Shown here: positions 34,666-50,090 of the stretch, one piece after another
Numbering within the stretch: position 1 is the stretch's first letter
Layout: the number at the start of each line of letters is the position of its first letter
Virus record (IMG/VR): IMGVR_UViG_3300042516_002585
DNA length: 64,000 nt
Source: an uncultured virus (IMG/VR IMGVR_UViG_3300042516_002585)
Lineage: Duplodnaviria; Heunggongvirae; Uroviricota; Caudoviricetes
Reading direction: 5' to 3' (one strand)
Program-made: the position numbers and the translations under genes
Notes under the pieces: generated by a model
What the model was told of the DNA's origin: nothing
What the model saw: the letters and a program-made list of their open reading frames with translations, nothing else
Database searches by the model: none

Positions 34666-34869
34666 ATGAAACTTTCTACTACTTCTGTCACCAAGATTGC
34701 TGATGCTCTCAAACCAGCAGTCATTGATTACATTTATGAAGATGAAGGATTTGTTGAATATATGCAAACTGCCGTGGTAGAGGGTATTCGCAATGCGATG
34801 GGAGATATGGATGAGGATTTACTTTTTGAACTGGGTATGTTAATCTTTGATCGGATCGAACTGAAATGA
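34666..34869 (+). CDS. Hypothetical protein
   Basis: Tiled ORF. Confidence 0.55.
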   Translation: MKLSTTSVTKIADALKPAVIDYIYEDEGFVEYMQTAVVEGIRNAMGDMDEDLLFELGMLIFDRIELK

Positions 34870-35096: not shown

Positions 35097-35404
35097 TTGG
35101 ATTGATCGCTGGTTTGACGTGTGGAATCGCTACATACTACGGTGTTGGTGATGGTTTCCATGGACAAACAACCGCTAATGGTGAACGGTTTGATGCTTAT
35201 CGTTGGACTGCAGCTCATCCTTATCTTCCTATGGGTACGAGGATTCGGGTAACCAATCAGGATAATCTCAAACAAGTGATTGTGAGAGTGAATGATCGTG
35301 GTCCATATTCTCATGCAGATCTAGATCTATCCTATGCTGCATTTGCACATATTCAATCTCCCCGCAAGGGTAACGCCACTATTTGTTATCGTGTAATCGG
35401 ATGA
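35093..35404 (+). CDS. rlpA: RlpA-like double-psi beta-barrel lytic transglycosylase
   Basis: ATYYG...FHGQTTANGERFD...TAAH..LPMGT...VIVRVNDRGPY...LDLSYAAF. Confidence 0.85.
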   Translation: MIGLIAGLTCGIATYYGVGDGFHGQTTANGERFDAYRWTAAHPYLPMGTRIRVTNQDNLKQVIVRVNDRGPYSHADLDLSYAAFAHIQSPRKGNATICYRVIG

Positions 35405-35775
35405 AAAAACTTCTTTTTGCTGCTGCGATTCTGTTCTCTGCACCAGTTTATGCACAACAGTCACCAACGAATTATCAACCATTTCGTTATGAAACATCTT
35501 GTGCTCTGATGTATGAGGGTGAACCAATGACGGATCTGTGTGTGGTGATTGAAACCCGTGAAAAAGGTGGAGCACTTCGCACTCGTAATATCTTTTCAAA
35601 TCGATTCAGTCTGACGATCAAAGGAAGATTTGATAAGCAGAAAGGTTATATGACCTGGGATTCTCATAATAAGTATGAATATAAATGGGACTATAAGATC
35701 GGTCAGGTTGGAGAACTTGGTGTCTGGTCTGAGGTTATGCCTAGTTTTTATTTGCAAAACGTAAGTTGGGATTGA
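35401..35775 (+). CDS. Hypothetical secreted protein
   Basis: Signal peptide MKKLLFAAAILFSAPVYA. Confidence 0.6.
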   Translation: MKKLLFAAAILFSAPVYAQQSPTNYQPFRYETSCALMYEGEPMTDLCVVIETREKGGALRTRNIFSNRFSLTIKGRFDKQKGYMTWDSHNKYEYKWDYKIGQVGELGVWSEVMPSFYLQNVSWD

Positions 35776-35778
35776 ATA

Positions 35779-35988
35779 ATGAAAATTACAGAAGCAACAG
35801 TTAATTTAAATGTACATGAGATGGGTGTGATTCTTTCTGCACTGCAAAATCTTGAAAATGCAGATGAACATCGTATTGCCAGAGAATATGGCAGTGTGCC
35901 AGCACTTTATGATAAACTCTATTCCTACTGGGAGCAGATGGACAGATCGCAAACTGGACTACGGTACGATGTGGTGCCCTCCTTCTGA
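35779..35988 (+). CDS. Hypothetical protein
   Basis: Tiled ORF. Confidence 0.5.
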   Translation: MKITEATVNLNVHEMGVILSALQNLENADEHRIAREYGSVPALYDKLYSYWEQMDRSQTGLRYDVVPSF

Positions 35989-36021
35989 GGTTATAATACA
36001 AAGGTAATCGGGACACACCCA

Positions 36022-36282
36022 ATGCAAACGCCTCAACTGACCAGCAAGGACGGCAATATGGTGGTTGACTTCTATCCCGTCAAGACTCCTTATGGTGATA
36101 TTTCTGAAACTTGGGTACTTCGTACAGTCACCTTTGCTCCTCACGGTCAAGTGTCAAAGAAGTTTCTCAACAAAGTAGAAATGCTGTTGGACATCCGTGA
36201 GCGTGTGGCATACGGTTACAATCAAACGGGTGATAACTCCAATCTTCCCCAACTTGGAAATCCGATGGCAGGTGCCTGCTGA
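36022..36282 (+). CDS. Hypothetical protein
   Basis: Downstream of TATAAT at 35991. Confidence 0.55.
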   Translation: MQTPQLTSKDGNMVVDFYPVKTPYGDISETWVLRTVTFAPHGQVSKKFLNKVEMLLDIRERVAYGYNQTGDNSNLPQLGNPMAGAC

Positions 36283-36787
36283 TGAAAACTTCTTATTGGT
36301 TTCTTGGTATCATTGCCATTCTCATGTGGAACGGAATGATCATCAAACGTGATCAAGAACTGTTCAAGGCATATGATAAGGTCTGTGCCGAACTTCCCTC
36401 TCATCCTCATTGCCATCTTTCCAAATGAACGACGAAGACATTCAACAATTTATGAATGCATTTGATGATTTTATGAAGCATTCTGAGGTTGAGCAATTTA
36501 ATCATGATGCCTGGTTGATTGCTAAACAATACACTGATCATTTTTATGAGCAGAAAGCAGCAGAACTGGAAGTGACTGTTGATTATTACATTCAGGAGTT
36601 TGTATGAACGATCAAACCAAATTCATTTTTGCACTTATGCAGATTGAGAACATTTCAAATCTCATCACAGGAAATGAATATGAAAGGTTCTTTGCTTCAC
36701 ATCTCATTCCAATCAAAGTTGAACTGGAAAGGCAATTGACAAATCTCACTCATTCCTCTAAAATTAAGGAGTAATTTAGAAATACTA

Positions 36788-37018
36788 ATGAAATCACTTT
36801 ACATTGTTGACTACTGGGTTCCGTTTCCTTCTTCTGAATATGGTGGTGTTGTATCACTAATCGCTGAGAATGATACGGAAGCATTCCAACTCCTTGCCGA
36901 TGAAGATGGTTTTGATGACAGTTATCAGAATCTAATCATGCCCAATGTCGTCAAGGCACAGAAGTTCAAACTTGTGGATGATTATGAATCTGGTATTATT
37001 GATGCATTTACCACCTGA
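36788..37018 (+). CDS. Hypothetical protein
   Basis: AAGGAG SD; YIVDYWVPFPSSEYGG. Confidence 0.6.
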   Translation: MKSLYIVDYWVPFPSSEYGGVVSLIAENDTEAFQLLADEDGFDDSYQNLIMPNVVKAQKFKLVDDYESGIIDAFTT

Positions 37019-37190
37019 TAATTATGGAAGAAAGACTCTATCGCATTGAAGAACTTTGTACAACTGGTTGGGAACTGGTTGAAGAAAAGTATGTTAATAT
37101 GACAAAAGAACGCACTCAGGAAGTTTTAAATCAACTGATTGCCGATGGTTATAATCCTAATACATTACGTGCCGTACCCAATCCACAAAA

Positions 37191-37469
37191 ATGATTGAGT
37201 TTCCTCATAAACCACCAGCAGGTTATTCTTATGAACAAGTTCCATTTAAACGTAATGTTATTGCAATCTGGATTCATAATCATTACAGGTTTGTTTACAA
37301 TGGCGGTGGGATTACTCGTAGCATCTGGGGATTCTACAATCTCAAAACCAAGTGCTTCCACTCTCCTATCAACGCCAAAACAGTCGGTGATCAAGTAAAC
37401 ATTGAACAAACAACTCCATACTCTGCTATGATACCTAAACTCTCACCTCTCGAACTTGCTTATGTCTAA
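37191..37469 (+). CDS. Hypothetical protein
   Basis: Tiled ORF. Confidence 0.6.
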   Translation: MIEFPHKPPAGYSYEQVPFKRNVIAIWIHNHYRFVYNGGGITRSIWGFYNLKTKCFHSPINAKTVGDQVNIEQTTPYSAMIPKLSPLELAYV

Positions 37470-37710
37470 GTATAGTCCACGCCTGAATGATTATGTTCAA
37501 TGGAAGAAAGGTGTCGAAGGATGGGTGTATTTTGTTGATAAAGAATATATCACCATCGAAACCAACGTCCGCCCAAAAGATCAATTCAATGTCCAGGCGT
37601 GTTCTATTCATAAGAATGAAAGGTTATTGGTACTTTGTTACAAGGAACAGTGGAATGAATTAACTTATGTCGGACATCGTGTTGATCAGTATTCAACTAC
37701 AATCATATGA
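37462..37710 (+). CDS. Hypothetical protein
   Basis: Tiled ORF. Confidence 0.55.
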   Translation: MSKYSPRLNDYVQWKKGVEGWVYFVDKEYITIETNVRPKDQFNVQACSIHKNERLLVLCYKEQWNELTYVGHRVDQYSTTII

Positions 37711-37952
37711 AACAGAAGAGAACAGTATGGAGATGGTGGGCAAAAGCATTAGGAGAGAAGGCAAGTAAATGTGACAAAGAATCAGACCACATTGCTATTA
37801 TACGTACTGTTATATTCAGTACTTATCTCATTACTAATCTATTCATTATTGCAGGCGTAATTCGACATTGGAACAAAAATGAAATACCAGGTTGTATACT
37901 ACAAATTGAAGAAGGACCAGAAGAAAGCGAAACAAGAAGCAATCTTTTATAA
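37707..37952 (+). CDS. Hypothetical membrane protein
   Basis: WRWWAKALGEK...TM helix...IRHWN. Confidence 0.55.
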   Translation: MKQKRTVWRWWAKALGEKASKCDKESDHIAIIRTVIFSTYLITNLFIIAGVIRHWNKNEIPGCILQIEEGPEESETRSNLL

Positions 37953-38302
37953 TATTGAAGATGCCTCACTCTGGGAGCAACATATTAAGGAACAAGGTTA
38001 TGTAAATTCTGAGATTGTACCAATCTTCTAAATACAAAAAAGATTTCCAAGAAACAATGAAGACGTTTGCACAATTAATGGAACAGATTCATGGTCCAGT
38101 AAATCGAACGGAAGTTGCGCTCGCAAAGACCAGAGCAAACATTGCCTCAGAGCGTCTTCGCAGAAGGCGTCAGTATCAACAAGGTCTTCATACGACGATG
38201 CACTTAAATCAGACCGCAGAAAAGGAAGACAGAAAAAAAGCAGAAGTTTATAATACCTGATTAACCGCAAAACCTACATTGGAATCTCCGCTGTTGTTAC
38301 AT

Positions 38303-39112
38303 TCATTTGTTATAAAACCAGTAATATCCTTTCCAACTATAATGCCCAGGATTGCGTAAACTTTTAATCAATCCGGTACCTTTACCAGAGCCACCTAATA
38401 CTCTCACAGCATCTGCAATAGATTCATAACGGGCACTTATTTCACCTGTTTTTTTATTTACAGCAAATACCGATTTCTTTTTAGATTTGTCTTCTAAGAT
38501 CTGCCACTTGTGTCCATAGGCAGTACCATCTTTTCTGGCAGCAAGTAGAATATTACTATTTTTATTCGGATCACCAGTAAGAGATAATGCTGCCATACGA
38601 GCATTCTCATAGTCAGTACAGATTCCAGTTTCTAAATTCTTTCCACGTATTGGAAGACCACAATGTTTTCCATTACCTCTGTTCTCTTCTGTAAGAGCAC
38701 CCCAAGGTTCTATCTTTGCTTTTGTAGTTAATGCAATAGATATGTTTTCAATATGTTCTGATGTAAGTATCTTTTGCTTTGCTTTTTCTGTTATTTTTTG
38801 TTTTGTTTCTTCACTGAATATTGGACGTTCACCACCACTTGTAGCATTATATCCTTCTTTAAATGTATTATGTTGTTTGATCCAATATTCTTCTCTTTCA
38901 TTTAATAAACTCTCATCACATTCATCTATTTCTTTAATCATGAAGTTGTGATTGCCATATTTACGCATGGCACGATGTAGGGGTTTATCACTCATTCTTA
39001 TTGCTTCTTGTATGTGTTGTTGCCACCTTTTATTCATTCCTTGGGTGGTCTGACCAACATACTTGTGCCCGTTTTGCTTGTTGATAATTAGGTAGATGAT
39101 TCCCTGTGCCAT
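38303..39112 (-). mobile_element. Free-standing GIY-YIG homing endonuclease (Seg-like, NUMOD-type C-terminus)
   Basis: GIIYLIINKQNGHKYVGQT...RW..H...E.YWI...GYN; C-terminal YESIADAVR..G; opposite orientation to its neighbours. Confidence 0.85.
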
Positions 39113-39323
39113 TGATATGATATGCTACATTCTTTATATATTGTACATAACGATTAAAATATAATACATAATGGTGAATTTAAAAAAGTTAAAATTATTG
39201 TATGGTGTAGTTAATGTTATATTAAATTATTGTGTGTGTTTTATAATATTCTCAATAATTATTGTTTATTGAGAATCAATTAGGTATTATGTTGAGAATA
39301 CCCAGATCTTATGCAAGCTTAGC

Positions 39324-39352
39324 ACGTTAGCATAAGGAGCGCAGTTTGTCAA
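39324..39352 (-). promoter_or_regulatory. Leftward sigma70-type promoter
   Basis: Minus strand TTGACA-17-TAACGT. Confidence 0.5.
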
Positions 39353-39403
39353 GTCCGCCGCCCGCGAAAATTTCCCGAGACCCCACACAAGACTTATAAT
39401 GCC

Positions 39404-39432
39404 TTGACAATCTTATAAGTTCGTGATAGAAT
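39404..39432 (+). promoter_or_regulatory. Rightward sigma70-type promoter
   Basis: TTGACA-17-TAGAAT, reading into the repeat cluster. Confidence 0.65.
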
Positions 39433-39680
39433 CTCGACGAGTTATGTTACGAGATGCACATAAATTCGACGAGACATCATATATATTGGTATGAATCTCG
39501 ACGAGACCTATATCTAGACTAGATTGCATCTCGACGAGTTTTATGCTACAATACGAAAGCGTTCACAAATCTCGACGAGCTTATGTACGACGACTACGAT
39601 CTCGACTACACATACACAGGCAACGATTACGCGGATCTCGACGAGTATTATGCACGAGATACACAGGATCTCGACGAGGA
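39431..39680. repeat. Cluster 1 of ATCTCG-A-CGAG(AT) palindromic repeats
   Basis: Copies at about 39431, 39464, 39495, 39528, 39569, 39599, 39635 and 39668; variant ATCTAGACTAGAT at 39512. Confidence 0.8.
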
Positions 39681-39735
39681 TTATGCGCGAGATGGGCAAG
39701 ATTACGAATCACTTGCATATCGTCATTATGCATGA
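39583..39735 (+). CDS. Small Asp/Tyr-rich protein overlapping the repeats (50 aa)
   Basis: MYDDYDLDYTYTGNDYADLDEYYARDTQDLDEDYARDGQDYESLAYRHYA; TACAAT about 30 nt upstream. Confidence 0.45.
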   Translation: MYDDYDLDYTYTGNDYADLDEYYARDTQDLDEDYARDGQDYESLAYRHYA

Positions 39736-39985
39736 TATAATCTAGACACATCGCATCTAGACACCTATGCTAGCACAAAAGCGCATTGTACAGGTTACAC
39801 TAGACATTATGTGTTATGATGATCTAGATCTAGATCATATTAATTGGCGAGAACTATTACAACTCGAACCGAATGAAGATCTCCATTGTAGGGTGAAAGA
39901 GTTCGATCCATTCGATTAATGTGACAGTTCTTGAATTGGCACAAGATCCCCTATTCTCAATAAGGGGTTTCTTATTGAGAATGAA

Positions 39986-40042
39986 TATTTTATGGCAGGG
40001 GGAGTGGCGATGTATTGTCGTCAGCAGGGATACCCTTCCCCT
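39986..40042 (-). ncRNA. Candidate structured small RNA, copy A
   Basis: Homologous to 44242-44297. Minus-strand promoter TTGATT-17-TATCTT at 40086-40058; 12-bp inverted repeat downstream at about 39953-39982. Confidence 0.5.
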
Positions 40043-40178
40043 CATTAGATTTCTTATAAGATAGCAGAGCATTAATCCCAAATCAAGGGGAATTGTGCCA
40101 GTTCTCCTAGTGGCACAAGGGGGGTTGTAATCTGCCGCCGAGCGGGTTATGTTGGTTTCGTTCCTGAGGGATTGCTCA

Positions 40179-40382
40179 ATGGTTCTTCTCACTGCCACAA
40201 ACTACGGTTGCGTTTTTACTCTTTCTCAGGAAGATGGTGATGAATTGTATTATGCTCCGATTTATGCTGATGGTAGTGTAAATCTTGGTGAATTTGCGCC
40301 AGTTGATATGGATAGCGCAGATATGGATCATATGGAACTTTTTGATATCAGAAACCAATTGCGTGAGATGGTGGAGGTGTGA
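40179..40382 (+). CDS. Hypothetical early protein
   Basis: Follows a palindrome-type promoter. Confidence 0.55.
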   Translation: MVLLTATNYGCVFTLSQEDGDELYYAPIYADGSVNLGEFAPVDMDSADMDHMELFDIRNQLREMVEV

Positions 40383-40461
40383 CGGTTTAACAAGTGGCAC
40401 AAGGGGGGTTGCAATGCCCCCCATCCCCTGATACATTACATTCGTTCCTGAGACACCGACC

Positions 40462-40935
40462 ATGCTGACTGGCAACGCACTGCTGATCAAGGTTAACGAA
40501 ATGCAGGCACAAAACCCGCCTGCTAAGATGTCTGAAATCGTTCGTGCCTGTGGGTATGAACTGGAAGGCAAACTGAAGTATACTCAATTCTACACTGAGT
40601 TGCTGACTGTCAAAGGTATCCTGAACAATGATACTTTGGAGAATGAAATCTCTGAGGAGAATCAGGATCTGTATGCCGAACTGTGTAACCGTTATGGTTC
40701 GGATGCAATCGATGCATTCCTGGAACTCTATGATGAAAATGATCTGGGTAATTTTGAAGATGCCTATCAGGGTCGTTATGATTCTGAGGCAGCATTTGCA
40801 GAGGAAATCACCACTGATTGTTATGGTTTGAACGTTCCTTCGTTCGTGATCATTGACTGGCAAGCAACTTGGGATCAGGGTCTCTATTATGACTATGATT
40901 TCGTGGATGGTTTCGTGTTCAGCAAGAATTGGTAA
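40462..40935 (+). CDS. Cyanobacterial AbrB-like N-terminus fused to ArdA-like antirestriction domain
   Basis: N-terminal LTGNALL.KV....ACGY...FYTELL..KG; highly acidic C-terminus YQGRYDSEAAFAEE...VPSFVIIDWQATW...GFVF. Confidence 0.55.
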   Translation: MLTGNALLIKVNEMQAQNPPAKMSEIVRACGYELEGKLKYTQFYTELLTVKGILNNDTLENEISEENQDLYAELCNRYGSDAIDAFLELYDENDLGNFEDAYQGRYDSEAAFAEEITTDCYGLNVPSFVIIDWQATWDQGLYYDYDFVDGFVFSKNW

Positions 40936-41097
40936 TCTCGACTAGATGATATCAAGATCTCGACGAGACATACACAATTCGTCGAGATCGCATATACGAT
41001 ATACACATCTCGACGACATATACACACGATATTATAATCTCGACGCACATACACATACGTATCGAGATGTGCAAGAATACGTGACACATTCTCGACA
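40935..41097. repeat. Cluster 2 of ATCTCGAC repeats (non-coding)
   Basis: Copies at about 40935, 40957, 40980 (reverse), 41007, 41037, 41061 (reverse) and 41090, separated by ACATAC-rich spacers. Confidence 0.75.
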
Positions 41098-41197
41098 CCC
41101 ACCCACCACGTGAGCTCGCCTTATGTGCAAGAATATGTGCTTCACCCCACTCACCCCTTCCCACACCATCTAGATGTGCTTTTTATATTCTTAGACT

Positions 41198-41216
41198 AAT
41201 ACCCCTTCGGGGTATT
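41198..41216. other. Perfect hairpin with 8-bp stem and GAA/TTC triloop
   Basis: AATACCCC-TTC-GGGGTATT. Confidence 0.6.
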
Positions 41217-41279
41217 GTTTCACATCTCTTTAGTATATCTTATAGAGTCTAGATTCTTATCTTCAATGGGAACAAAGGT

Positions 41280-41308
41280 ATTCTAATCAATATTTTGAGT
41301 ACTGTCAA
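41280..41308 (-). promoter_or_regulatory. Leftward sigma70-type promoter into non-coding repeat cluster 2
   Basis: Minus strand TTGACA-17-TAGAAT, divergent from a + promoter across the palindrome at 41317-41338. Confidence 0.6.
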
Positions 41309-41398
41309 GCCCCTGTGGTCCAGTTCGTGAAGTGGTACAAGATCGGTTGCAATCCGATGATCCCCCTGATAAATTACATTCGTTCCTGAGATTTCGCC

Positions 41399-41557
41399 AT
41401 GACTGAGGTTAAAGTTCGGGTCGAAACTAACGACGGTTGCGTGACATTTTGGTATGAAAAGTCCAGAGTCAAGAATCCCACCGAAGTTGTGTGCAATCGT
41501 GTCACTGAACAGTTAATGGGTCTTAACATTAAAGAGGTGAGTGTGACAGTCGCCTAA
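41399..41557 (+). CDS. Small hypothetical early protein
   Basis: 52-aa ORF after a TTCGTTCCTGAG leader motif. Confidence 0.5.
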   Translation: MTEVKVRVETNDGCVTFWYEKSRVKNPTEVVCNRVTEQLMGLNIKEVSVTVA

Positions 41558-41625
41558 GTGCCACATCGGTGCTTGCTAAGCACCTCCCCCCGTGCCATAC
41601 TACGTTTGTTCCTGAGAGACACACC

Positions 41626-41754
41626 ATGTTTGATGAACTCTGGCAAGAGATTCAAGATGCTCCTGGTGAGATCTTTGACATTCCCGAACTTCGTGATCTG
41701 GATGATGACAAGTTCGATGTCAATGACTACATCAACGGAAACTACGACTACTGA
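41626..41754 (+). CDS. Small acidic early protein
   Basis: MFDELWQEIQDAPGEIFDIPELRDLDDD; own promoter. Confidence 0.55.
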   Translation: MFDELWQEIQDAPGEIFDIPELRDLDDDKFDVNDYINGNYDY

Positions 41755-41951
41755 TGTTGTTTCAAGTCACCGCAATCGAGTTTGATTTTGATGAGGATGA
41801 TGACTTTCCCGAGCATCAATTCTCTAACATTACCGATGAAACGATTGGTATGATTTGGGAAGCAGATGATGAAGATGATCTAGTTGAAGAGATCACATGT
41901 GCCACAGGTTGGTGCATCAAATCCATTGATTATCGTCACGTTCTGAAATGA
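41754..41951 (+). CDS. Small acidic protein
   Basis: TGATG-coupled. Confidence 0.55.
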   Translation: MLFQVTAIEFDFDEDDDFPEHQFSNITDETIGMIWEADDEDDLVEEITCATGWCIKSIDYRHVLK

Positions 41952-42148
41952 CCAACAATGCACCCTATGGTTGCCAAACCTATAAGGATCTGCTGGTCAT
42001 GTTACAATCTATGACAGCAGAGCAGTTGGACTGCACTCCGACAGTGTATGATCCTGATGCGGATGAGTATTATCCCATCACAACACTGCTCACCGCATCT
42101 GACACCAACGACGTGTTAGACTCTGATCATCCTTACCTTTCCTTCTGA
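41948..42148 (+). CDS. Hypothetical protein
   Basis: ATGA-coupled. Confidence 0.55.
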   Translation: MTNNAPYGCQTYKDLLVMLQSMTAEQLDCTPTVYDPDADEYYPITTLLTASDTNDVLDSDHPYLSF

Positions 42149-42339
42149 TGAACCGTTCTGAACTTCAAGATGCTTTCATTCTGCAACTGCTGGATGACAT
42201 GGATCTCAAAACAATGACCCAACTCTGTTATGATTATCTGGATGAGGGTTATGCTAAGTATTCTGATGAAGAATTGCTCAGTGAGTGTAATGAATACTAT
42301 CCCGAACTGCTAGGCGATCCTGCCGTGTCGGACGGTTGA
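42148..42339 (+). CDS. Small acidic protein
   Basis: TGATG-coupled. Confidence 0.55.
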   Translation: MNRSELQDAFILQLLDDMDLKTMTQLCYDYLDEGYAKYSDEELLSECNEYYPELLGDPAVSDG

Positions 42340-42408
42340 GCAAGTGGCACACAGGGGGTTGCGAGCACCGTGCCCCCGTGCCATACTACGTTCATCAGCA
42401 AACAACCA

Positions 42409-43308
42409 ATGCAAAACAAGCACCAAGAGCACCCCGAAGACACCATCCTCACGGGCGACCTTTCCGTTCTGGATTGGTTCACTGCTGCTGGCGCTCTGAG
42501 CGTTAAGATCGACGGTGCCCCTGCAATCGTGTGGGGCACTGATCCTGCAACGGGTACGTTCTTCGTGGGCACTAAGGCAGTATTCAACAAAAAGAAGATT
42601 CGTATTGCTCACTCTCACGATGAGATTGACCAGCATTATGAAGGCAATGTAGCAGACATTCTTCATTCGTGCTTTGATTATCTGCCACGCACCGAGTCTA
42701 TCATTCAGGGTGACTTTATCGGGTTTGGTGGTGAAACTGAATACACTCCGAACGTGATCACCTATAAGTTCGGTGATGTAGTTTCGCAACGTATTATCAT
42801 CGCACCTCACACCTATTATGAAGCAAACGATGACCTTCGTGATAGTTGGGCATTGCCCCTGATGGTGAATCTGCAAAGCGATGATGACGTTCTGTTCGTG
42901 AAACCTGATGCCTACATTGTACACAATCAGACCTCATTCGCTGATGTAAAAGAGGTTTGTGATTTCGCTCGCCAGATGTCAACTGCGTGTGAGTTCGTTT
43001 CTAACAAAGAAGCAGCAGAGATCAAAAAGCAAATTAACGCCTGCATTCGTGCGGGTGAAGAGATCAATCCTGAGGACTTCGATTGTGACACTAACCTGAT
43101 GCGTTTGTGGGCATTGGTGAAGTCAATCAAAGATGACTGTTTGTTCCTCTGCCGTAACAATGGTCCTGCTGCTTATCTCTACGGCAACAGAATCGACGCT
43201 GAGGGTTATGTGATGACCAATGAGTTTGGTATGTTCAAACTGGTCAATCGTGAGGTCTTTTCTAACGCTAACTTCAACCACGGACGCTTTCAGTGTGCCA
43301 ATCGTTGA
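42409..43308 (+). CDS. Phage protein with ligase/nucleotidyltransferase-like motifs
   Basis: SVKIDG (KxDG), IQGDF, EGYV and FKLVNR resemble covalent nucleotidyltransferase motifs I, III, IV and V. Confidence 0.55.
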   Translation: MQNKHQEHPEDTILTGDLSVLDWFTAAGALSVKIDGAPAIVWGTDPATGTFFVGTKAVFNKKKIRIAHSHDEIDQHYEGNVADILHSCFDYLPRTESIIQGDFIGFGGETEYTPNVITYKFGDVVSQRIIIAPHTYYEANDDLRDSWALPLMVNLQSDDDVLFVKPDAYIVHNQTSFADVKEVCDFARQMSTACEFVSNKEAAEIKKQINACIRAGEEINPEDFDCDTNLMRLWALVKSIKDDCLFLCRNNGPAAYLYGNRIDAEGYVMTNEFGMFKLVNREVFSNANFNHGRFQCANR

Positions 43309-43374
43309 AGTGGCACAAGGGGGATTGACTCCCCCCTTCTCACCCTTTATAGTAACTTCAGTTCAATCAAACCA

Positions 43375-43941
43375 ATGGAAACCTTCCTCGAGACTTCCTT
43401 CCAGAATGTACGTTCTTCAAAGCGTACAGATGAGTTCCACAAGGTGCTTTTAGATGAGGTTCTGAATGCAAACCCTCAGTGGGCAGAGTATGACTGGCAG
43501 TATGAATACCAACTGCCCGTAGACGGTTTCGGAGGCACCTTTGACATTGACATTGCTGGGTTTGTTGATAGTCAACTTAAAGTTGCAATTCTTGGCAAAG
43601 CACTCAACAGCAACATCAACAAAAACATCAAAAATTATGCTAACACCAGTGTAGGCGAAGCGGCACGTTTGATGTACGCTCCTGACATCATCCTGGAAAA
43701 AGTGCTGTTCGTGAGTGTTCTTCCCCGTGTGGCACCTCGCTTCAACAAAGCAGGCGAAGTTCAGGGATTCGATGACGTTGTGGGTGCCAAAGAGCGCACT
43801 AAGATTAACACCGTTTTGCAGTTCCAATACGGTGGCAAAGTAGAGGCAATCGACCTGTTCTTTGACATTGACAATGTTAAAGTTCTGACTGAGTTCAACA
43901 CCGTTAGCATCAGCAACCTGGATCCGCTGGTGCTGGTGTGA
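43375..43941 (+). CDS. Putative PD-(D/E)XK restriction-endonuclease-like nuclease
   Basis: EYQLP...FDIDIAG...AILGK..NSNINKNIKNY...GE. Confidence 0.45.
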   Translation: METFLETSFQNVRSSKRTDEFHKVLLDEVLNANPQWAEYDWQYEYQLPVDGFGGTFDIDIAGFVDSQLKVAILGKALNSNINKNIKNYANTSVGEAARLMYAPDIILEKVLFVSVLPRVAPRFNKAGEVQGFDDVVGAKERTKINTVLQFQYGGKVEAIDLFFDIDNVKVLTEFNTVSISNLDPLVLV

Positions 43942-44019
43942 CGGTTCAGGGGGTGGCACACGCTGCCCCCATCCTGCTCCGCTGTGCCTTTATACTGATC
44001 TCAGTTCAGACAAAGACCG

Positions 44020-44193
44020 ATGACCCGCTACGACGTGATCTGCCCTTCCGCTCCCTGGGAGAACACTACCACTGATGAGGATCGTGCCTACGACCTCTGC
44101 TATTCTCTGAGCGAGGACTACGGTTACGCTGAGATTCGCCAGAACGGAATGGTCATCGCAGACTATGGCAACCCTGCCACCTTCCTTGGTTGA
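44020..44193 (+). CDS. Cassette mini-gene (57 aa)
   Basis: ATG at the fixed cassette position; followed by a terminator. Confidence 0.6.
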   Translation: MTRYDVICPSAPWENTTTDEDRAYDLCYSLSEDYGYAEIRQNGMVIADYGNPATFLG

Positions 44194-44200
44194 CACTAAG

Positions 44201-44225
44201 GGGAGCAAATACGCTCCCTTTTTTT
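44201..44225 (+). terminator. Intrinsic terminator
   Basis: GGGAGC-AAATAC-GCTCCC followed by a T run. Confidence 0.7.
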
Positions 44226-44241
44226 ATACTTTTCTTTTTTT

Positions 44242-44297
44242 TATTTTATGGCAGGGGGCGTGGCGACCGTTTTCGTCATCAGGGCTACCCCGCCCCT
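44242..44297 (-). ncRNA. Candidate structured small RNA, copy B
   Basis: Homologous to 39986-40042. Minus-strand promoter TTGCTG-16-TATACT at 44342-44315. Confidence 0.5.
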
Positions 44298-44413
44298 TCT
44301 TCGCTTGTGACCTCAGTATAGGGCCGCGGCAATCCCCAGCAACCACTGCTGTGCCAGTTCCCGAACCGTCCACCAAACCGCCCACTGCCCCCCTGATGCC
44401 CTATACTGATCTC

Positions 44414-44578
44414 ATGAAACAAACCAAGATGACTCACGACGAACTGATCGCTAGCGTGATGGCAGAGTACACCGCCAAGGTCAACCGTGAGGAAGCATAC
44501 CGCCAAGCGGTGCGCCGTGGTGAGATCGCTCCCCCTCAGGTCCAATCCACCAACTGGAACATCAGCGACCGCCATTGA
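44414..44578 (+). CDS. Cassette mini-gene
   Basis: Downstream of TATACT at 44402; ends WNISDRH. Confidence 0.55.
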   Translation: MKQTKMTHDELIASVMAEYTAKVNREEAYRQAVRRGEIAPPQVQSTNWNISDRH

Positions 44579-44619
44579 GCGGCGCTGCCCTTAGAATGAC
44601 CTCAGATCAAACGAACCCC

Positions 44620-44760
44620 ATGATCCGCTACGAAGTCCGCTACCAGGTGCCCTACAACCAGTGTGAGTGGCGCTCTCAGTTCTTCCGCACCTATGATGAG
44701 GCGATGCGGATGGTAGAGTTCTACCGCTCCTGTGGATCCCCTGCTCACCTGGCACCATGA
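44620..44760 (+). CDS. Cassette mini-gene
   Basis: MIRYEVRYQVPYNQCEWRSQFF; downstream of TAGAAT. Confidence 0.55.
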   Translation: MIRYEVRYQVPYNQCEWRSQFFRTYDEAMRMVEFYRSCGSPAHLAP

Positions 44761-44924
44761 TCAAAGCACTGACCCGCTCCCGTTCCCCTGAGTTTCACCG
44801 CGCCACCATGCTGCGCCTCCTGATCACCGCTCTGCTGCTCTGGGGATTCTGGGAACCGCTGCGCCCCATCCGCAATGTGACAGCTCAGGCACTGGACACC
44901 GCTGCCGACCTGATCGCCCGCTGA
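44757..44924 (+). CDS. Small membrane protein
   Basis: ATGA-coupled; hydrophobic LLITALLLWGFW. Confidence 0.5.
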   Translation: MIKALTRSRSPEFHRATMLRLLITALLLWGFWEPLRPIRNVTAQALDTAADLIAR

Positions 44925-44957
44925 CCCTTTATACTGATCTCAGTTCAGACGACACCG

Positions 44958-45128
44958 ATGATCGACCTCCTAAACCGCGTGGGGATCGTTGCCCTTGCTC
45001 TGCTCTTCATTGTGGGCGGCGCCCATCTGGCGGCTCAGGGCAATGCCCACCGCAACGCTGAATGTCGTGCTAACGGTGGCAAGGTGGTTGTCTTTCAGAA
45101 TCGGCCGCCAGGGTGTGTCCTGCCCTGA
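44958..45128 (+). CDS. Cassette mini-gene, membrane peptide with two Cys
   Basis: TM helix then GNA..NAEC.ANGG.V...C; resembles 47650..47826. Confidence 0.55.
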   Translation: MIDLLNRVGIVALALLFIVGGAHLAAQGNAHRNAECRANGGKVVVFQNRPPGCVLP

Positions 45129-45219
45129 ACCCAGTGCCGCCGGCGGCACTGGCACACTGAACCACATGGACCCCCTCCCTGACCCCCTATACTGATCTCA
45201 GTTCACAAGCGAACCCACC

Positions 45220-45471
45220 ATGAAAGTTCAGCAAGTCGGTAGCAACCAAACCGAAGTGACCCTGGCAGACGGGACCTGCATCCTGTTCTCCTACGATCAA
45301 CCCGTCGCCGCCATCGTGCCTGGCAAAGGGTGGATTCGCACCGCTCAGCAGTGGAGCGCCACCACCACCAAGCATGTCAACGCCTGGATTCGCAAGCATC
45401 GCGGCAACTACGTCATCGGTGAGGTTGCCAGTGTGCCACAATGGGATCTGGACCAACTGGTGGCGTTCTGA
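45220..45471 (+). CDS. Cassette mini-gene
   Basis: LFSYDQPVAA...WSATTTKHVNAW. Confidence 0.65.
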   Translation: MKVQQVGSNQTEVTLADGTCILFSYDQPVAAIVPGKGWIRTAQQWSATTTKHVNAWIRKHRGNYVIGEVASVPQWDLDQLVAF

Positions 45472-45518
45472 GGGGCGCCACCCCCTACAATACTCTCAGA
45501 TCAGAGGAACCCCCCCCG

Positions 45519-45716
45519 ATGAAACTCTCCAAAAAGCAAAGGATTGTCGCCGTTCCTATTATCATTGTTCTGGCAATTCCTGCTATTCTCCTAAAAGTTG
45601 CGACGGAGATTTTCTACATCCTCTCCAACATTTTTGGGGCATCTGCTGATAAATTGGAGAAACTAAATCTTGCTTGGGGTGAACAGTTTCAAACCTTCAT
45701 CAAGACTGTCTTGTGA
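45519..45716 (+). CDS. Cassette mini-gene, membrane protein
   Basis: AT-richer than neighbours; hydrophobic helix. Confidence 0.55.
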   Translation: MKLSKKQRIVAVPIIIVLAIPAILLKVATEIFYILSNIFGASADKLEKLNLAWGEQFQTFIKTVL

Positions 45717-45795
45717 CAGTCCAGCAAGTGGCACAAAGCACCGCCGCCTGACCCCCTGACCCCTTACAATACTTTCAGTTCACAAGCAACCGACC

Positions 45796-45972
45796 ATGAC
45801 CTACGCTCAGATCACCGCTTCCAACCTCAGCGCCTCCGCTGCCCGCTCCGCGATCTGTGATCTGGCAGATCAGTTCTCCTGGGAGACCGTCGCCCGTGAG
45901 ATGCTCTCCCGCATGTCAGGTGATGAGGCACGGGAGTTTGTGGAAGACTTCCAGCGCCTCTATGCCGACTGA
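45796..45972 (+). CDS. Cassette mini-gene
   Basis: ATG at the fixed cassette position. Confidence 0.6.
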   Translation: MTYAQITASNLSASAARSAICDLADQFSWETVAREMLSRMSGDEAREFVEDFQRLYAD

Positions 45973-46046
45973 GGCACTGGCACACGGGGGGCACCAACCC
46001 CCCACCCCCGACCTGCTATACTGATCTCAGTTCAAACGACCCGACC

Positions 46047-46232
46047 ATGAAAGTTTACGCCGTTATCGCTGGTGAGGATTATGCGGGGCAGGACTTCGAT
46101 TCCCTGCGCCTGTTCGATTGCCTCTCCGCTGCCCAAGCATACGAAAAAGAACTGCAGCAGCAGTTCGGCGTAGACTATACCCTGCTGGAGGTGCGGGAGG
46201 TTTGCATGGAATCCGCTCTCTGTGCCGCCTGA
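46047..46232 (+). CDS. Cassette mini-gene
   Basis: ATG at the fixed cassette position. Confidence 0.65.
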   Translation: MKVYAVIAGEDYAGQDFDSLRLFDCLSAAQAYEKELQQQFGVDYTLLEVREVCMESALCAA

Positions 46233-46307
46233 GGCACTGGCACAAGGGTCCTGAGCACCGACCCTAAACTGCTCTACAATTCTCTCAGTTCACAACCCGA
46301 ACCGATC

Positions 46308-46514
46308 ATGCGCTACAATCCCGCCACCGATCGCGCCCTGAGCATTGATGAGATCGCCGCGCAGTGTAAGGCAGCGATCATGAAGGCATCCGCTCCCGCT
46401 CCTGCTCCCTGCTCCTGGGAGGATGTTGCTGCCCTGGAGGATGATGACTTCTACGCTGAGAACCCTGTTCTCTGGGGATTCGCCTGGGAGAATGATCTGA
46501 TGATCGCCGCCTGA
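46308..46514 (+). CDS. Cassette mini-gene
   Basis: ATG at the fixed cassette position. Confidence 0.6.
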   Translation: MRYNPATDRALSIDEIAAQCKAAIMKASAPAPAPCSWEDVAALEDDDFYAENPVLWGFAWENDLMIAA

Positions 46515-46610
46515 TACAATGGGAGCGGGAGCGCCTACGGCGGAACGCCTACGGCGTTAACGCCCTTAAAGACTCCCACACCAAACCACAACCCACAATC
46601 CTAGCACACC

Positions 46611-46742
46611 ATGTCCCGCGAACTTGCCCTCTCCCTGCTCCGCTCTGGCAACGACGGCGCTGAGATCCTGCAGATTCTGGAAACGATCGCCGCCGATGAT
46701 GGCAGCGACGCAGAACCCACCCTAGAAGAAATCCAATTCTGA
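46611..46742 (+). CDS. Mini-gene with long structured leader
   Basis: MSRELALSLLRSGNDGAEILQILETIAADD; TACAAT at 46515. Confidence 0.55.
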   Translation: MSRELALSLLRSGNDGAEILQILETIAADDGSDAEPTLEEIQF

Positions 46743-46812
46743 TAGTGGCACAACGGAGGGGGACACCCCTTCCCTTTTGCCTCTATACTGATCTCAGTTC
46801 AGACAAAGACCG

Positions 46813-46959
46813 ATGACCGACTTCTTCGCTTCCTACCTCTCTGACCTCTCCGCTCTGTCGGGTGCTGACCTCTCCTGCCTGCTGTGCGACGCCGTCGACT
46901 TCGATGACGATGCTGCCTTTCAGGTGATCATCGCTGAGATGCAGGCACGGGGCATCTGA
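46813..46959 (+). CDS. Cassette mini-gene
   Basis: ATG at the fixed cassette position. Confidence 0.55.
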   Translation: MTDFFASYLSDLSALSGADLSCLLCDAVDFDDDAAFQVIIAEMQARGI

Positions 46960-46993
46960 TCTGCTACAATACTCTCAACAGCAACGGACCCCG

Positions 46994-47155
46994 ATGCCTT
47001 CCTTCCGCGTTGTTACCACCGATGAGATGCCAGAGGTCCTGGGAGAGTTTCCCAACCTGGCATATGCCGATATGTTTGCTGAGGCACTGATGCACCAGAG
47101 ATGCCAACGCTCAACCGTCGAGCATTGGGATGGCAGGGAATGGGTTTCCCTCTGA
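46994..47155 (+). CDS. Cassette mini-gene
   Basis: ATG at the fixed cassette position. Confidence 0.55.
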   Translation: MPSFRVVTTDEMPEVLGEFPNLAYADMFAEALMHQRCQRSTVEHWDGREWVSL

Positions 47156-47194
47156 CCCGCGACCTGCTACAATACTCTCAGTTCAGACAACCCC

Positions 47195-47383
47195 ATGCAC
47201 TGCACCACCTTCCCCGCCATCGTTTGGAACTGCGCCGATGAGAACGGGTGCATCCGCTGGTCCGCCGCCTGCCAGGCAGCAAAGGATCATGGTCTGTGGG
47301 ATGACTTCCGCACCGACTATGGCACCACCGCCCGCTTCGGTCCCGTGGATGCGGGTGAGTTCCTTTCGTGGTTGGGGTATTGA
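47195..47383 (+). CDS. Cassette mini-gene, DAGE..WLGY family
   Basis: Paralogous to 49130 and 49391. Confidence 0.7.
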   Translation: MHCTTFPAIVWNCADENGCIRWSAACQAAKDHGLWDDFRTDYGTTARFGPVDAGEFLSWLGY

Positions 47384-47432
47384 CCCCTGCCCCCTTCGTG
47401 CTCTACAATTCTCTCAGTTCAGACAAAGACCG

Positions 47433-47615
47433 ATGACCCGCACCCTGACCGACGACCTCCTGGACCTGGCAACTGCCATCGCTGCTGAGATGTATGGTTG
47501 CGATCTGGATCGCCTGGACCCTGAGGACCTGGCATGGTATGCTGACCGCACCGACGCAGACAACCTGGAGGAGATGGCAAACGACCTTGCTGCTGCCGCC
47601 TGGGAATCCTACTGA
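47433..47615 (+). CDS. Cassette mini-gene, acidic
   Basis: ATG at the fixed cassette position. Confidence 0.6.
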   Translation: MTRTLTDDLLDLATAIAAEMYGCDLDRLDPEDLAWYADRTDADNLEEMANDLAAAAWESY

Positions 47616-47649
47616 TCTGCTACAATACTCTCAACAGCAACGGACCCCG

Positions 47650-47826
47650 ATGCAAACTCTCAAAGCAACCGCCATCGCCCTCCTGGTCATCACGCTGGCG
47701 ACCGCTGGATACGCTGCCCTGCTCCACAATGGCAACGCCCGCATCGAAGCCAAGTGCGCCGCTCAGGGTGGGCAGGTCATCACCGCCCCTGGTGAGATCA
47801 GCCGCTGCCTCCGCCCTGCCCGCTGA
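47650..47826 (+). CDS. Cassette mini-gene, membrane peptide with two Cys
   Basis: TM helix then GNARIEAKCAAQGGQV...C. Confidence 0.6.
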   Translation: MQTLKATAIALLVITLATAGYAALLHNGNARIEAKCAAQGGQVITAPGEISRCLRPAR

Positions 47827-47863
47827 TCTGCTACAATACTCTCAACCGACACCTCCCCCACCG

Positions 47864-48031
47864 ATGACCAACCACACCTGGGCCGACAACGCGATGCGCT
47901 GCGCCGCTGCCCGCGCTGCCGCCCTGCGTCCCTTTGAGCACGAGTCCTGGGCACACTACCGTCAGCAGCGGGAGCGGGAGACTCTGACCGCCCTGTGGCA
48001 TCTCTACTGGGATCATGAGGTCGCCTTTTGA
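47864..48031 (+). CDS. Cassette mini-gene
   Basis: ATG at the fixed cassette position. Confidence 0.55.
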   Translation: MTNHTWADNAMRCAAARAAALRPFEHESWAHYRQQRERETLTALWHLYWDHEVAF

Positions 48032-48063
48032 CCTGCTATAATTCTCTCAACCGCAACGGACCC

Positions 48064-48276
48064 ATGACCCTCACCCTCCAGGACCTGACCTTTGAAGAAC
48101 TGGAATCGCTCTGGGATGACTGCCAGCGCAACGGCGACTATGACTTTCAGGATCGCCTGCTGCGGGAGATGCTCACCCGTGAGGATGCCTGCCCCGAATC
48201 CTATGACCTGCTCTGGGAGATGCAGGATGCAGGATGGAACGGTGGGGTCACTCAGGAGGACAGGGACGCTCGCTGA
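48064..48276 (+). CDS. Cassette mini-gene, acidic
   Basis: ATG at the fixed cassette position. Confidence 0.6.
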   Translation: MTLTLQDLTFEELESLWDDCQRNGDYDFQDRLLREMLTREDACPESYDLLWEMQDAGWNGGVTQEDRDAR

Positions 48277-48345
48277 ACCGTCCACCTAGGGGCATCCTGC
48301 CCCCCTGCCGACCTGCTACAATTCTCTCAGTTCAGACAAAGACCG

Positions 48346-48549
48346 ATGACCAAAGCACAAGCGATCGAAACCCTCTCCGCTCAGTTCAACGCTCCCTACG
48401 GCGGGACCTTCATCTCCGCTCTGAGCGGTGACCTGATTCAGGACATCATGATGGAGGGTGACATGGGCAAGACCTTCCACCGCTTTGGTAAGACCATTGT
48501 GGAAGACTCGAGTCTGATCGGTCTGGCACGCTACTACCAGACCCACTGA
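48346..48549 (+). CDS. Cassette mini-gene
   Basis: ATG at the fixed cassette position. Confidence 0.6.
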   Translation: MTKAQAIETLSAQFNAPYGGTFISALSGDLIQDIMMEGDMGKTFHRFGKTIVEDSSLIGLARYYQTH

Positions 48550-48615
48550 ACCCTACGGGGCAGGTTGACCCCTGCCCCCGACCTGCTATACTGAACACGT
48601 TCACACCTGAACCCG

Positions 48616-48798
48616 ATGACCACCACCACCATCGACGGCATTCAATTCAAGGTCACCCGCCTGCCCGTTGCCCATGGCGCTAGCGCCAACCGTTGGGCAT
48701 CCCGAATCAAAGGCGGTTCCTCCCGTGTTCGCACTGGTGCTGGTTCCCGATCGGTTCACCAGAGCACCAAGGCAACCGCTCTGCAGGACGTTCGCTGA
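48616..48798 (+). CDS. Cassette mini-gene, basic
   Basis: ATG at the fixed cassette position. Confidence 0.6.
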   Translation: MTTTTIDGIQFKVTRLPVAHGASANRWASRIKGGSSRVRTGAGSRSVHQSTKATALQDVR

Positions 48799-48836
48799 CC
48801 TGCTATACTGATCTCAGTTCACAACCCGAACCGACC

Positions 48837-49061
48837 ATGACCGATCCCACCCCCCTGCAGACGATCCTTTCCCCCATCCGCTACCCGTTCGCGGTGGCGT
48901 TCGTGAAGGGCGATAAGATCGCCCGCACCCTTGCCTACGCCAGCACCCTGGAGGACTGCTACTTCCAGGTCCAGGGATGGCGCAGCGCCTATGGCAGCGC
49001 CGACTACATCATGGCAGAGCAGCAGGAGCGCAGCGGCAAGTCTTACTGGGTTGCCGTTTGA
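48837..49061 (+). CDS. Cassette mini-gene
   Basis: ATG at the fixed cassette position. Confidence 0.6.
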   Translation: MTDPTPLQTILSPIRYPFAVAFVKGDKIARTLAYASTLEDCYFQVQGWRSAYGSADYIMAEQQERSGKSYWVAV

Positions 49062-49129
49062 CCCTACGGGGCAGGTTGACCCCTGCCCCCGACCTGCTAT
49101 ACTGATCTCAGTTCACAAGCAACCGACCG

Positions 49130-49321
49130 ATGCCTGAGACCTTCTCCGATCAACTGTTGACCATTGCCGATGACAACGGATGCGTCACCTATGACGACGC
49201 CCTGTATGCTGCCGACCTTCACGGCAGCATGAATGAGTTCCTGCAGGAGTACGGCACCGCTGACCACTGGGGAATCTATGGGATCGACGCGGGCGAACTG
49301 TTGACCTGGTTGGGATACTGA
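49130..49321 (+). CDS. Cassette mini-gene, DAGE..WLGY family
   Basis: Ends IDAGELLTWLGY. Confidence 0.7.
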   Translation: MPETFSDQLLTIADDNGCVTYDDALYAADLHGSMNEFLQEYGTADHWGIYGIDAGELLTWLGY

Positions 49322-49390
49322 CCCCTATGGGGCAGGTTGACCCCTGCCCCCGACCTGCTATACTGATTCCAGTTCACAAGCAACCGACCG

Positions 49391-49582
49391 ATGACCTGCT
49401 CCACCTTCCCCGCTCAGATCGCTGAAATCACCAACCCTGAGAACGGGACCATCTTCTGGATCGAAGCGGCATACGCTGCCAAACAGCACGGTCTGTGGGA
49501 TGACTTCCGCACCGACTACGGCACGACCTCTGACTTTGGTGGGGTCGACGCTGGCGAATTTCTGGTGTGGTTGGGGTACTGA
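49391..49582 (+). CDS. Cassette mini-gene, DAGE..WLGY family
   Basis: HGLWDDFRTDYGTT...VDAGEFLVWLGY. Confidence 0.7.
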   Translation: MTCSTFPAQIAEITNPENGTIFWIEAAYAAKQHGLWDDFRTDYGTTSDFGGVDAGEFLVWLGY

Positions 49583-49652
49583 TTCCCTATGGGGCAGGTT
49601 GACCCCTGCCCCCGACCTGCTATACTGATCTCAGTTCACACCCGAACCGACC

Positions 49653-49847
49653 ATGACCCGCTTCCCTCTCTCTCAGGCAACCCGCATCGCTGACCGCCAG
49701 ACCGTGTGGATCTCTGCTGCTGATAATGCTAAGAATGCTGACGGTCGCCCCTCTCAGTACGTTCACTGGGGTGTGCCTACTGCCATCATTGCTGGACAGT
49801 ATTCTGAGTCTTGTGCTCACACCGTCAAAGCACCGTGCTTTGACTGA
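49653..49847 (+). CDS. Cassette mini-gene
   Basis: ATG at the fixed cassette position. Confidence 0.6.
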   Translation: MTRFPLSQATRIADRQTVWISAADNAKNADGRPSQYVHWGVPTAIIAGQYSESCAHTVKAPCFD

Positions 49848-49919
49848 TCTGTTCGTGGGGGTGGGGTGCCACCCTGCCCCCGACCTGCTATACTGATTCC
49901 AGTTCACAAGCAACCGACC

Positions 49920-50090
49920 ATGACCATGACCCTCGAAACCGCCAACCGTATTTGGGAAGACTGCTATCAGAGCACCGACCTCACCCTTTGGGGTAAGTAC
50001 ACTCTGACTCAGCGGATGCAGGCAATCGAAACCCGCGATGCCCACGCTAACGGCGGATGGGGTCGGTGGAACATCAGCGACCGCGACTGA
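49920..50090 (+). CDS. Cassette mini-gene
   Basis: ATG at the fixed cassette position; ends WNISDRD. Confidence 0.6.
   Translation: MTMTLETANRIWEDCYQSTDLTLWGKYTLTQRMQAIETRDAHANGGWGRWNISDRD

Follow-up and report, generated by a model that had tools for sequence, protein, structure and literature searches.

Genes and features of the locus

The DNA analyzed here is a 64,000-nucleotide stretch of an uncultured virus (IMG/VR record IMGVR_UViG_3300042516_002585), referred to below as the window and always meant at its full length. It contains an array of 25 plus-strand open reading frames (ORFs; g1 to g25) of 43–83 amino acids (aa) at 44020–50090, interspersed with short promoter-like units. An earlier account made from the letters alone (the sequence-only reading) had described about 25 mini-genes in an integron-like arrangement; the gene count is reproduced here, and the arrangement is discussed below. 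Judged by its genes, the window is part of a T4-like cyanophage. A protein family scan finds the Gp5, gp25 and gp6 baseplate families, and the flanking gene to the right of the array matched 105 phage records, 96 of them named Synechococcus, Prochlorococcus or cyanophage. A blastn comparison with cultured phages returned only three short matches. The array occupies the most variable end of the small-gene region, presumed early, of this phage and forms a GC island of 57–61%, compared with 29–48% in the other 1-kb windows.

All 20 of the 20 DNA runs that contain at least half of the window's sampled words are lake metagenomes, and seven of these are possible sources of the window DNA. Pattern scans with the unit as bait gave 163 loci, to which further loci were added later; 59 longer loci and 28 more were mapped, short loci and most overlapping copies of one contig being left out. 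A metagenome scan added one locus, and record G001 does not cover the array. Gene-family clustering, after 20 redundant or unrelated loci had been dropped, used 61 loci. The features of the array are as follows.

43937–50090, plus strand: whole array, 25 mini-genes and 24 promoter-like units, GC 57–61%
44020–44193, plus: g1, 57 aa, PHROG 17176, widespread (28 of 60 loci including the window)
44414–44578, plus: g2, 54 aa, or 49 aa from a second ATG at 44429; PHROG 14769
44620–44924, plus: g3 (46 aa) and overlapping g4 (55 aa, PHROG 2128), with one minimal unit whose −10 box is at 44592
44958–45128, plus: g5, 56 aa; a different gene stands here in the near-identical contig L005
45133–45219, plus: palindrome-type unit of g6; identity with L005 resumes within it, at 45179
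45220–45471, plus: g6, 83 aa, DUF8033 (PF26096), found in many unrelated phages
45519–46514, plus: g7 to g10, 65, 58, 61 and 68 aa; g8, g9 and g10 preceded by the palindrome or its right half
46515–46742, plus: g11 with its unit and leader: TGA-TACAAT box, folded leader of ~90 nt, gene of 43 aa
46743–48549, plus: g12 to g19, mostly rare genes; g13, g14 and g16–g18 with minimal stop-(C/T)CTGC-TAnnnT extended −10 units
48557–48592, plus: hairpin-type unit 1, before g20: TTGACC in the loop, 16 nt, TG-TATACT
48616–49061, plus: g20 (60 aa) and g21 (74 aa)
49068–49652, plus: g22 and g23, paralogues of g14, with hairpin-type units 2–4 (49068, 49329, 49591)
49653–50090, plus: g24 (64 aa) and g25 (56 aa), terminal cassettes common to locus L011
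50088–50185, plus: array-closing fold, very GC-rich, z −2.7, in 5 of 88 loci including the window; GC falls to 41% just after it

Coding constraint on the array genes

All 25 ORFs end in TGA; g4 overlaps g3 through an ATGA and has no unit of its own. GC at third codon positions (GC3) is 0.70 in the array genes versus 0.21 in 14 other window genes, with nearly equal values at second positions (0.46 versus 0.43), and relatives show the same shift (mean GC3 of 0.71 in 299 unit-headed genes, with about 0.3 in downstream genes). In 16 of the 16 genes that have a homologue at ≥65% identity, synonymous single-base changes are more numerous than non-synonymous ones (for g3, 311 to 108). The codon-position pattern and the synonymous excess bear out the claim that the ORFs are real genes under protein-level selection. 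The tetramers AGCT, CCGG and GGCC are avoided in the array as elsewhere in the window (1, 1 and 3 occurrences versus 18, 27 and 26 expected). The array genes appear to be long-standing residents of the phage, with codons probably tuned to a GC-rich picocyanobacterial host. Genes at 32126–43317 have an intermediate GC3 of 0.50, giving a gradient of 0.21, 0.50 and 0.70 towards the array.

Predicted promoter/leader units

A TAnnnT box lies within 60 nt upstream of the start in 23 of the 25 ORFs, in 22 cases at a distance of 21–27 nt. The box of g2 is 6 nt from the first ATG and 21 nt from the second, and at g11 the sequence TACAAT directly follows the preceding TGA and is in turn followed by the ~90-nt leader. 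In total, 24 of the 25 genes can be given a −10 box, which is of the extended type in 13 of the 24 units, while a 5/6 match to the −35 sequence TTGACA is present in only five of the 24. A 22-nt profile built from 22 units has 23 matches in 43938–50090 (200 shuffles: mean 0.05, maximum 1), three plus-strand matches elsewhere in the window and none on the minus strand; leave-one-out scores are 11–34 bits for 21 of the 22 units and 0.4 bits for that of g20. This accords with the roughly 23 conserved promoter-leader copies, mostly devoid of a Shine-Dalgarno sequence, that had been noticed before. The latter motif precedes 1 of the 25 array ORFs, which is nothing special to the array because only 3 of 14 other window genes have one.

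The units are of three types. Those on the left carry a 24-bp palindrome, or its right half, ending 28–32 nt before the −10 box (g1, g2, g6, g8, g9, g10, g12 and, as a variant, g19). In the minimal units of the middle, the −10 box, mostly extended, lies 0–14 nt after the upstream TGA. On the right (g20, g22, g23, g24), an 8-bp hairpin with TTGACC in its loop is placed 16 nt before TG-TATACT. This hairpin, GGGGCAGG-TTGACC-CCTGCCCC, recurs at 48557, 49068, 49329 and 49591, each time with TTGACC 16 nt before TATACT, so that the GGGGCAG/CTGCCCC stem around TTGAC described by the sequence-only reading is present at all four distal copies; the two copies that were folded have z-scores of −3.1 and −4.1. 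The same reading had called these copies near-identical repeats of ~70 bp, which holds for the first ~45 nt; over 71 nt they are 75, 100, 96 and 87% identical to the reference. A stem-loop in almost every unit, as it had also claimed, is not found, since 14 of the 24 units fold at −9 kcal/mol or better. The folded leader of g11 (46521–46610, z −3.2) is shorter in relatives, and in the window and L005 it contains an inserted pair of CGCCTACGGCG repeats.

In loci L170, L171, L184 and L202, a second short hairpin (GGGG-CAAACGGA-CCCC) with no ATG nearby comes after some of the hairpin units, possibly a further small RNA in each case.

Cassette exchange among relatives

Between fixed flanks, formed by a DUF6267 gene and a glycosyltransferase-like gene, the gene content varies among the 59 + 28 other loci mapped. 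The 299 unit-headed genes of the 61 loci fall into 89 families, 39 of which are singletons, and the most common family has 13 different next neighbors in 19 cases. Fifteen of 22 gene adjacencies in the window occur in no other locus, and 24 of 129 shared gene pairs are found in reversed order. Alignments of ≥80% identity end preferentially between genes: after removal of 13 redundant loci, 101 of 127 ends lie in spacers (±10 nt) versus 34% expected, and 26 lie inside genes, with the loci being related and the ends consequently not independent.

Two close relatives show individual events most clearly. Contig L005 is 99.6% identical to the window from position 45179 onwards, with the same order from g6 to g25, and has another gene in place of g5 as well as diverged alleles of g1–g4. 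Locus L011 reads g21, x, x, g22, x, x, g24, g25, compared with g21, g22, g23, g24, g25 in the window; two extra cassettes thus follow g21, two others replace g23, and a unit is present on both sides of each extra segment. As a separate observation, one L011 cassette (oriented positions 675–906) encodes a protein that consists largely of EIRD/EINIHD repeats. Insertions, deletions and replacements between relatives map to units in L005, in L011 and at the alignment ends. The comparison of relatives envisaged by the sequence-only reading therefore shows that neither order nor content is conserved, with cassettes gained, lost, replaced and reordered, and its view of repeat-bounded shuffling of single-gene cassettes, of the kind known as promoter-early stem-loops (PeSLs), is sustained. 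Gene capture, which it also proposed, has no support as far as host genes are concerned: the proteins that can be placed all belong to phage families. As for a most recent expansion at the right end, the right half does hold rare genes and homogenized units; the terminal g24 and g25 are nevertheless shared with L011, and g5 has also been replaced.

Four metagenome or RNA runs were compared with the window as contigs. Among these contigs are relatives from the same lakes whose cassettes are ordered differently, and the L005-type joint also occurs in them. Backward joints, such as excised mini-circles would leave, are seen in contigs at 88% likeness, which relatives with another gene order could give as well, and the joints mostly end in or near units, an effect that repeats produce by themselves. 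RNA runs X21 and X23 have contigs in 26 and 22 of the 30 bins, for the most part of related sequence; these contigs may include DNA and were not credited as evidence of expression.

Homogenization of units within genomes

The distal units are homogenized within each genome. All four hairpin units of the window read TTGACC...TATACT, and all six of L011 read TTGACG...TACACT, even before genes that the two share. Similarly, the g24 unit of L005 carries the two-base variant present in the neighboring g23 unit, and likeness between units declines with rank distance, from 0.71 to 0.64. Homogenization within a genome argues for recombination between units.

Proposed mechanism of cassette exchange

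Based on the above data, we propose that general recombination at the promoter-linker units swaps whole genes, as has been proposed for PeSLs, a reading to which we give a probability of about 75%. Each mini-gene would lie behind a short unit, with a −10 box (often extended) and a conserved leader, readable by the host sigma70-type RNA polymerase. A similar unit of 25–70 bp at both ends of every cassette would serve as the recombination substrate, on which homologous recombination of the phage, presumably through a RecA-like UvsX (a gene of the RecA/UvsX family is present in four of five related virus records), could insert, delete, replace and reorder whole genes. Because every cassette starts and ends in a similar unit, exchange would neither break genes nor cost them their promoters. 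The same exchanges would copy variants between neighboring units and so homogenize them, and the high-GC3 codons would probably suit the translation machinery of a GC-rich picocyanobacterial host as infection begins.

Several points weigh against this proposal. Random recombination, if only products with intact genes survive selection, would likewise leave homology that ends at gene borders, and the ends counted are not independent. The loci were baited with the unit and are hence not a random sample of cyanophages. A stable hairpin is lacking in ten of the 24 units, and those of the distal units are not classical terminators because a U-run is missing. Over all loci, likeness is higher between units that precede the same gene in different genomes (0.72) than between units within one genome (0.66; background 0.63), so that homogenization is only local; it was moreover seen in L011 and L005 only, and assemblers can flatten identical repeats. 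Finally, the ≥65% identity filter disfavors non-synonymous changes, and 9 of the 25 genes have no homologue that passes it.

The units could instead be promoters and leaders kept alike by selection, with genes arriving by non-homologous joining and surviving only if the joint is intergenic (moron accretion). The closer resemblance of units to those of the same downstream gene than to those of the same genome fits this alternative, under which breaks at gene borders are expected as well, and so do the 26 of 127 ends inside genes. Selection on promoters leaves unexplained, however, why near-neutral variants are genome-specific (6/6 and 4/4 units), and neither the direct repeats that flank the L011 inserts nor the 24 of 129 reordered pairs follow from it; we therefore regard moron accretion as unlikely. 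A still smaller chance goes to a dedicated site-specific system, integron- or CRISPR-like, that inserts at the hairpin or palindrome and copies the neighboring unit each time. The identity of successive hairpin units within a genome, the TGA at the junction of 278 of 299 unit-headed genes and the exact conservation of one hairpin in 36 stretches of viral contigs would suit such a system, although upstream genes of lower GC often end in TGA too (32 of 33 in one family). The enzyme and the sites it would need were looked for. Tyrosine and serine recombinases (PF00589, PF00239) occur in none of five related virus records, four of which are ≥90% complete, and a Pfam scan of 60 window proteins returns no integrase family, in line with the sequence-only reading, which saw none in the window. 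The spacers contain no attC-type sites, the only three GTTRRRY/RYYYAAC heptamers of the array all lying inside ORFs, and three unlike unit types all act as borders. Nor is polar insertion at a single attI site seen: changes occur on the left, at g5, and on the right, between g21 and g24, while the terminal cassettes are shared. An integron-like mechanism is thus not supported, though a recombinase of an unrecognized kind is conceivable.

Least probable of all, and barely worth retaining, is an assembly artefact that has strung together cassettes of co-occurring phages. Logan contigs do break at units, and relatives with other cassette orders share the same lake runs. Against this, five other, separately assembled IMG/VR contigs match the window at 100% identity wherever they overlap it, and one of them spans the whole array, which shows that the array is no such artefact; L005 has the same order from g6 to g25, and most units are too short and too unlike each other to mislead an assembler.

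Upstream palindrome and a candidate host regulator

43937–43960, no strand: palindrome of the g1 unit, 24 bp, TGTGMC...TGGCACA type, 30 nt before the −10 box at 43991
44350–44373, no strand: shared palindrome with two divergent −10 boxes, that of the small RNA 29 nt to the left and that of g2 28 nt to the right

The palindrome distinguishes the left units from those of the middle and right, which lack it. At 29–32 nt before a −10 box, it likewise stands in front of small genes in the corresponding regions of S-PM2, S-SRM01 and P-SSM2, and S-PM2 has two matches to the core unit pattern. The palindrome and −10 layout is also found at the small-gene groups of 32126–43317 in the window, with palindromes ending at 32149, 33257, 34444, 40401, 41565 and 42351. 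Doron et al., in the ISME J of 2016, are said to have described an early-gene cluster and a 'novel regulatory element' in T4-like cyanophages; that element may correspond to the palindrome.

According to PMC6191309, CGRE1 is the site of PMM1637, a PlmA-type GntR protein, in yfr2 promoters and is confined to marine picocyanobacteria; the MED4 yfr2 promoter oligonucleotide of Supplementary Table S1 has the half-sites AACTGGCACA and TGTGACAATT. The phage palindrome contains the same two half-site words, and in both cases the TGTGAC half ends about 56 nt before the transcription start, that of the phage being a predicted one. The phage version differs from CGRE1, as documented there, in its swapped half order and an added 4-nt spacer, and the array's phage comes from a lake, unlike the marine hosts of CGRE1. 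This likeness makes PlmA a candidate host regulator of the palindrome units.

Putative antisense small-RNA element

44248–44308, minus: putative small-RNA element, ORF-less and conserved; covarying 5-bp hairpin, RRGGUM loop; own −10 box at 44315–44320
39992–40052, minus: second copy of the element, upstream of the array, between two palindromes
44200–44225, no strand: terminator-like hairpin of g1, GC hairpin and T-run; on the other strand just past the small RNA

The element at 44248–44308 is most likely a small RNA, to judge from its pairing pattern. BLAST finds it in 36 of 88 loci. In a 36-row alignment, 99.4% of the cells pair, and two-sided changes are present in four of the five pairs of the first helix, above all slid controls. 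Transcription from the minus strand is favored because G-U pairs are frequent. A second helix shows no two-sided change in the 36-row alignment and is not predicted by RNAalifold; folded as a single sequence, the copy at 39992 does not surpass its shuffles (z +1.0). The model built from the 36 rows has 41 hits in 78 sources. A suitably spaced −10 box accompanies 41 of the 41, and all 40 hits with known orientation face against the array; P-SSM2 shares this promoter layout at a weak match (16.5 bits, E 0.01). Two other readings were rejected: a hammerhead, suggested by CUGAUGA...GAAA in the window copy, of which CUGA is not conserved, and a short ORF, whose ATG is not conserved. Rfam has no match at gathering score in the array region, and Rfam 15 has none to the element at gathering score or at E ≤ 10. 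Passages of PMC9964418 on cyanophage RNAs name only other ones. A plus-strand TATACT at 44224–44229, right after the T-run of the terminator-like hairpin, is conserved in most relatives and could either initiate transcription through the small RNA or belong to the terminator.

Predicted function of the cargo

None of the 25 array ORFs has a credible Pfam match, and the six that match PHROGs all fall into families of unknown function. The predicted model of g6 (pLDDT 88) matches only DUF8033 and unnamed viral proteins, with a best Z of 4.8 among solved chains. For g23 (pLDDT 78), EF-hand-like helical matches (Z ≤ 5.6, root-mean-square deviation of 3.5 Å and worse) were not credited, and neither was a single marginal PADLOC match of g15 (E 0.0097). 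The paralogues g14, g22 and g23 belong to a largely viral cluster. The most common array gene, g11 (46611–46742; 42 of 60 loci), encodes a protein whose N-terminus is helical and in which a variable acidic linker leads to a conserved, Phe-ended C-terminal tail of the PTxxxIQF type; its profile finds nothing credible in the PDB (best E 0.017). We presume a resemblance of this acidic, Phe-ended tail to the docking tails of SSB-type proteins.

Upstream of the array, at 40462–40935, lies an ArdA-like anti-restriction gene (PHROG 36653, E 9e-17; Pfam ArdA below cut-off). Its proximity and the position of the array make a role of the cargo as immediate-early effectors of host takeover or anti-defence, which the sequence-only reading had put forward, plausible; no cargo protein has a functional match in Pfam, PHROGs or PADLOC, or among the two folded proteins. 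A more elaborate and rather improbable scenario would make the array both a swap platform and an evolving early regulon tuned to the host; recombination would also re-assign genes among the three promoter classes. PlmA would read the palindrome class and so tie the conserved left genes and the antisense small RNA, from lake phages to P-SSM2, to the light and nitrogen status of the host; new cassettes would enter on the right behind homogenized, unconditional promoters, to be screened as counter-defence proteins.

Other features of the window

5617–5937: three tRNA genes
18208–20264: helicase (ResIII/DEAD), then an N6/N4 DNA methylase; locally GC-richer
38303–39112, minus: GIY-YIG endonuclease gene, against the gene flow
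39432–39678 and 40936–41017: ORF-poor stretches rich in TCTCGACGAG words

The two ORF-poor stretches hold 12 of the 13 window matches to TCTCGACGAG (≤1 mismatch, some on both strands; chance mean 1.35), and similar words occur in S-SRM01; they could be an origin or a protein-binding array.

Comparison with known systems

With integrons (IntI/attI/attC), the array shares tandem single-gene cassettes parted by repeats; it differs in having no integrase, no attC and no polar insertion, and in that its cassettes carry their own promoters. The host-takeover module of phage SPO1 likewise comprises some two dozen clustered small early genes and repeated promoter elements, in an unrelated phage and with unrelated proteins. 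Our literature search, which reached few subscription papers, found no paper on PeSL-type arrays in cyanophages or on the RNA at 44248–44308.

The closest parallel is with PeSL cassettes, known from the pairs RB49/phi1, T4/PST and KVP40/nt-1, which their authors themselves compare with integrons (PMC2839356, PMC4122927). As described in these two papers, PeSLs and the array units have in common repeated sigma70-type promoter units that begin at the upstream stop codon, in part of the units a poly-G/poly-C stem that can overlap the −35 box, a hyperplastic region, a position ahead of small unknown ORFs, and insertions, deletions, replacements and displacements at the units with no integrase. On the same basis, several differences are apparent. 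The array belongs to a cyanophage, in contrast to the enteric and Vibrio T4-type phages of PeSLs; the upstream part of its units is GC-rich instead of AT-rich; and the 3′ Shine-Dalgarno sequence of PeSLs is present at 1 of 25 ORFs, being rare elsewhere in the window too. A −35 box is found in 5 of the 24 units, an extended −10 in 13 and no stable stem in 10. The array is also denser, with 24 units in 6 kb compared with six in ~5 kb in the nt-1 example, and adds the palindromes of the left units and the codon shift of the cargo; unit homogenization does not figure in the sections on PeSLs that were consulted.

The core mechanism of PeSL shuffling was already published in 2010. Beyond it, the array offers a bounded set of presumably self-expressing small proteins (89 families from 61 loci) to screen for host takeover and counter-defence in picocyanobacteria, a named candidate host factor, PlmA, for the palindrome, and a putative small-RNA family absent from Rfam. 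Because the AT-rich upstream part and the Shine-Dalgarno sequence are lacking, we consider the array a variant that works like a PeSL array rather than a member of that class. It carries promoter-linker shuffling, described in enteric and Vibrio T4-type phages, over to cyanophages in a dense form.

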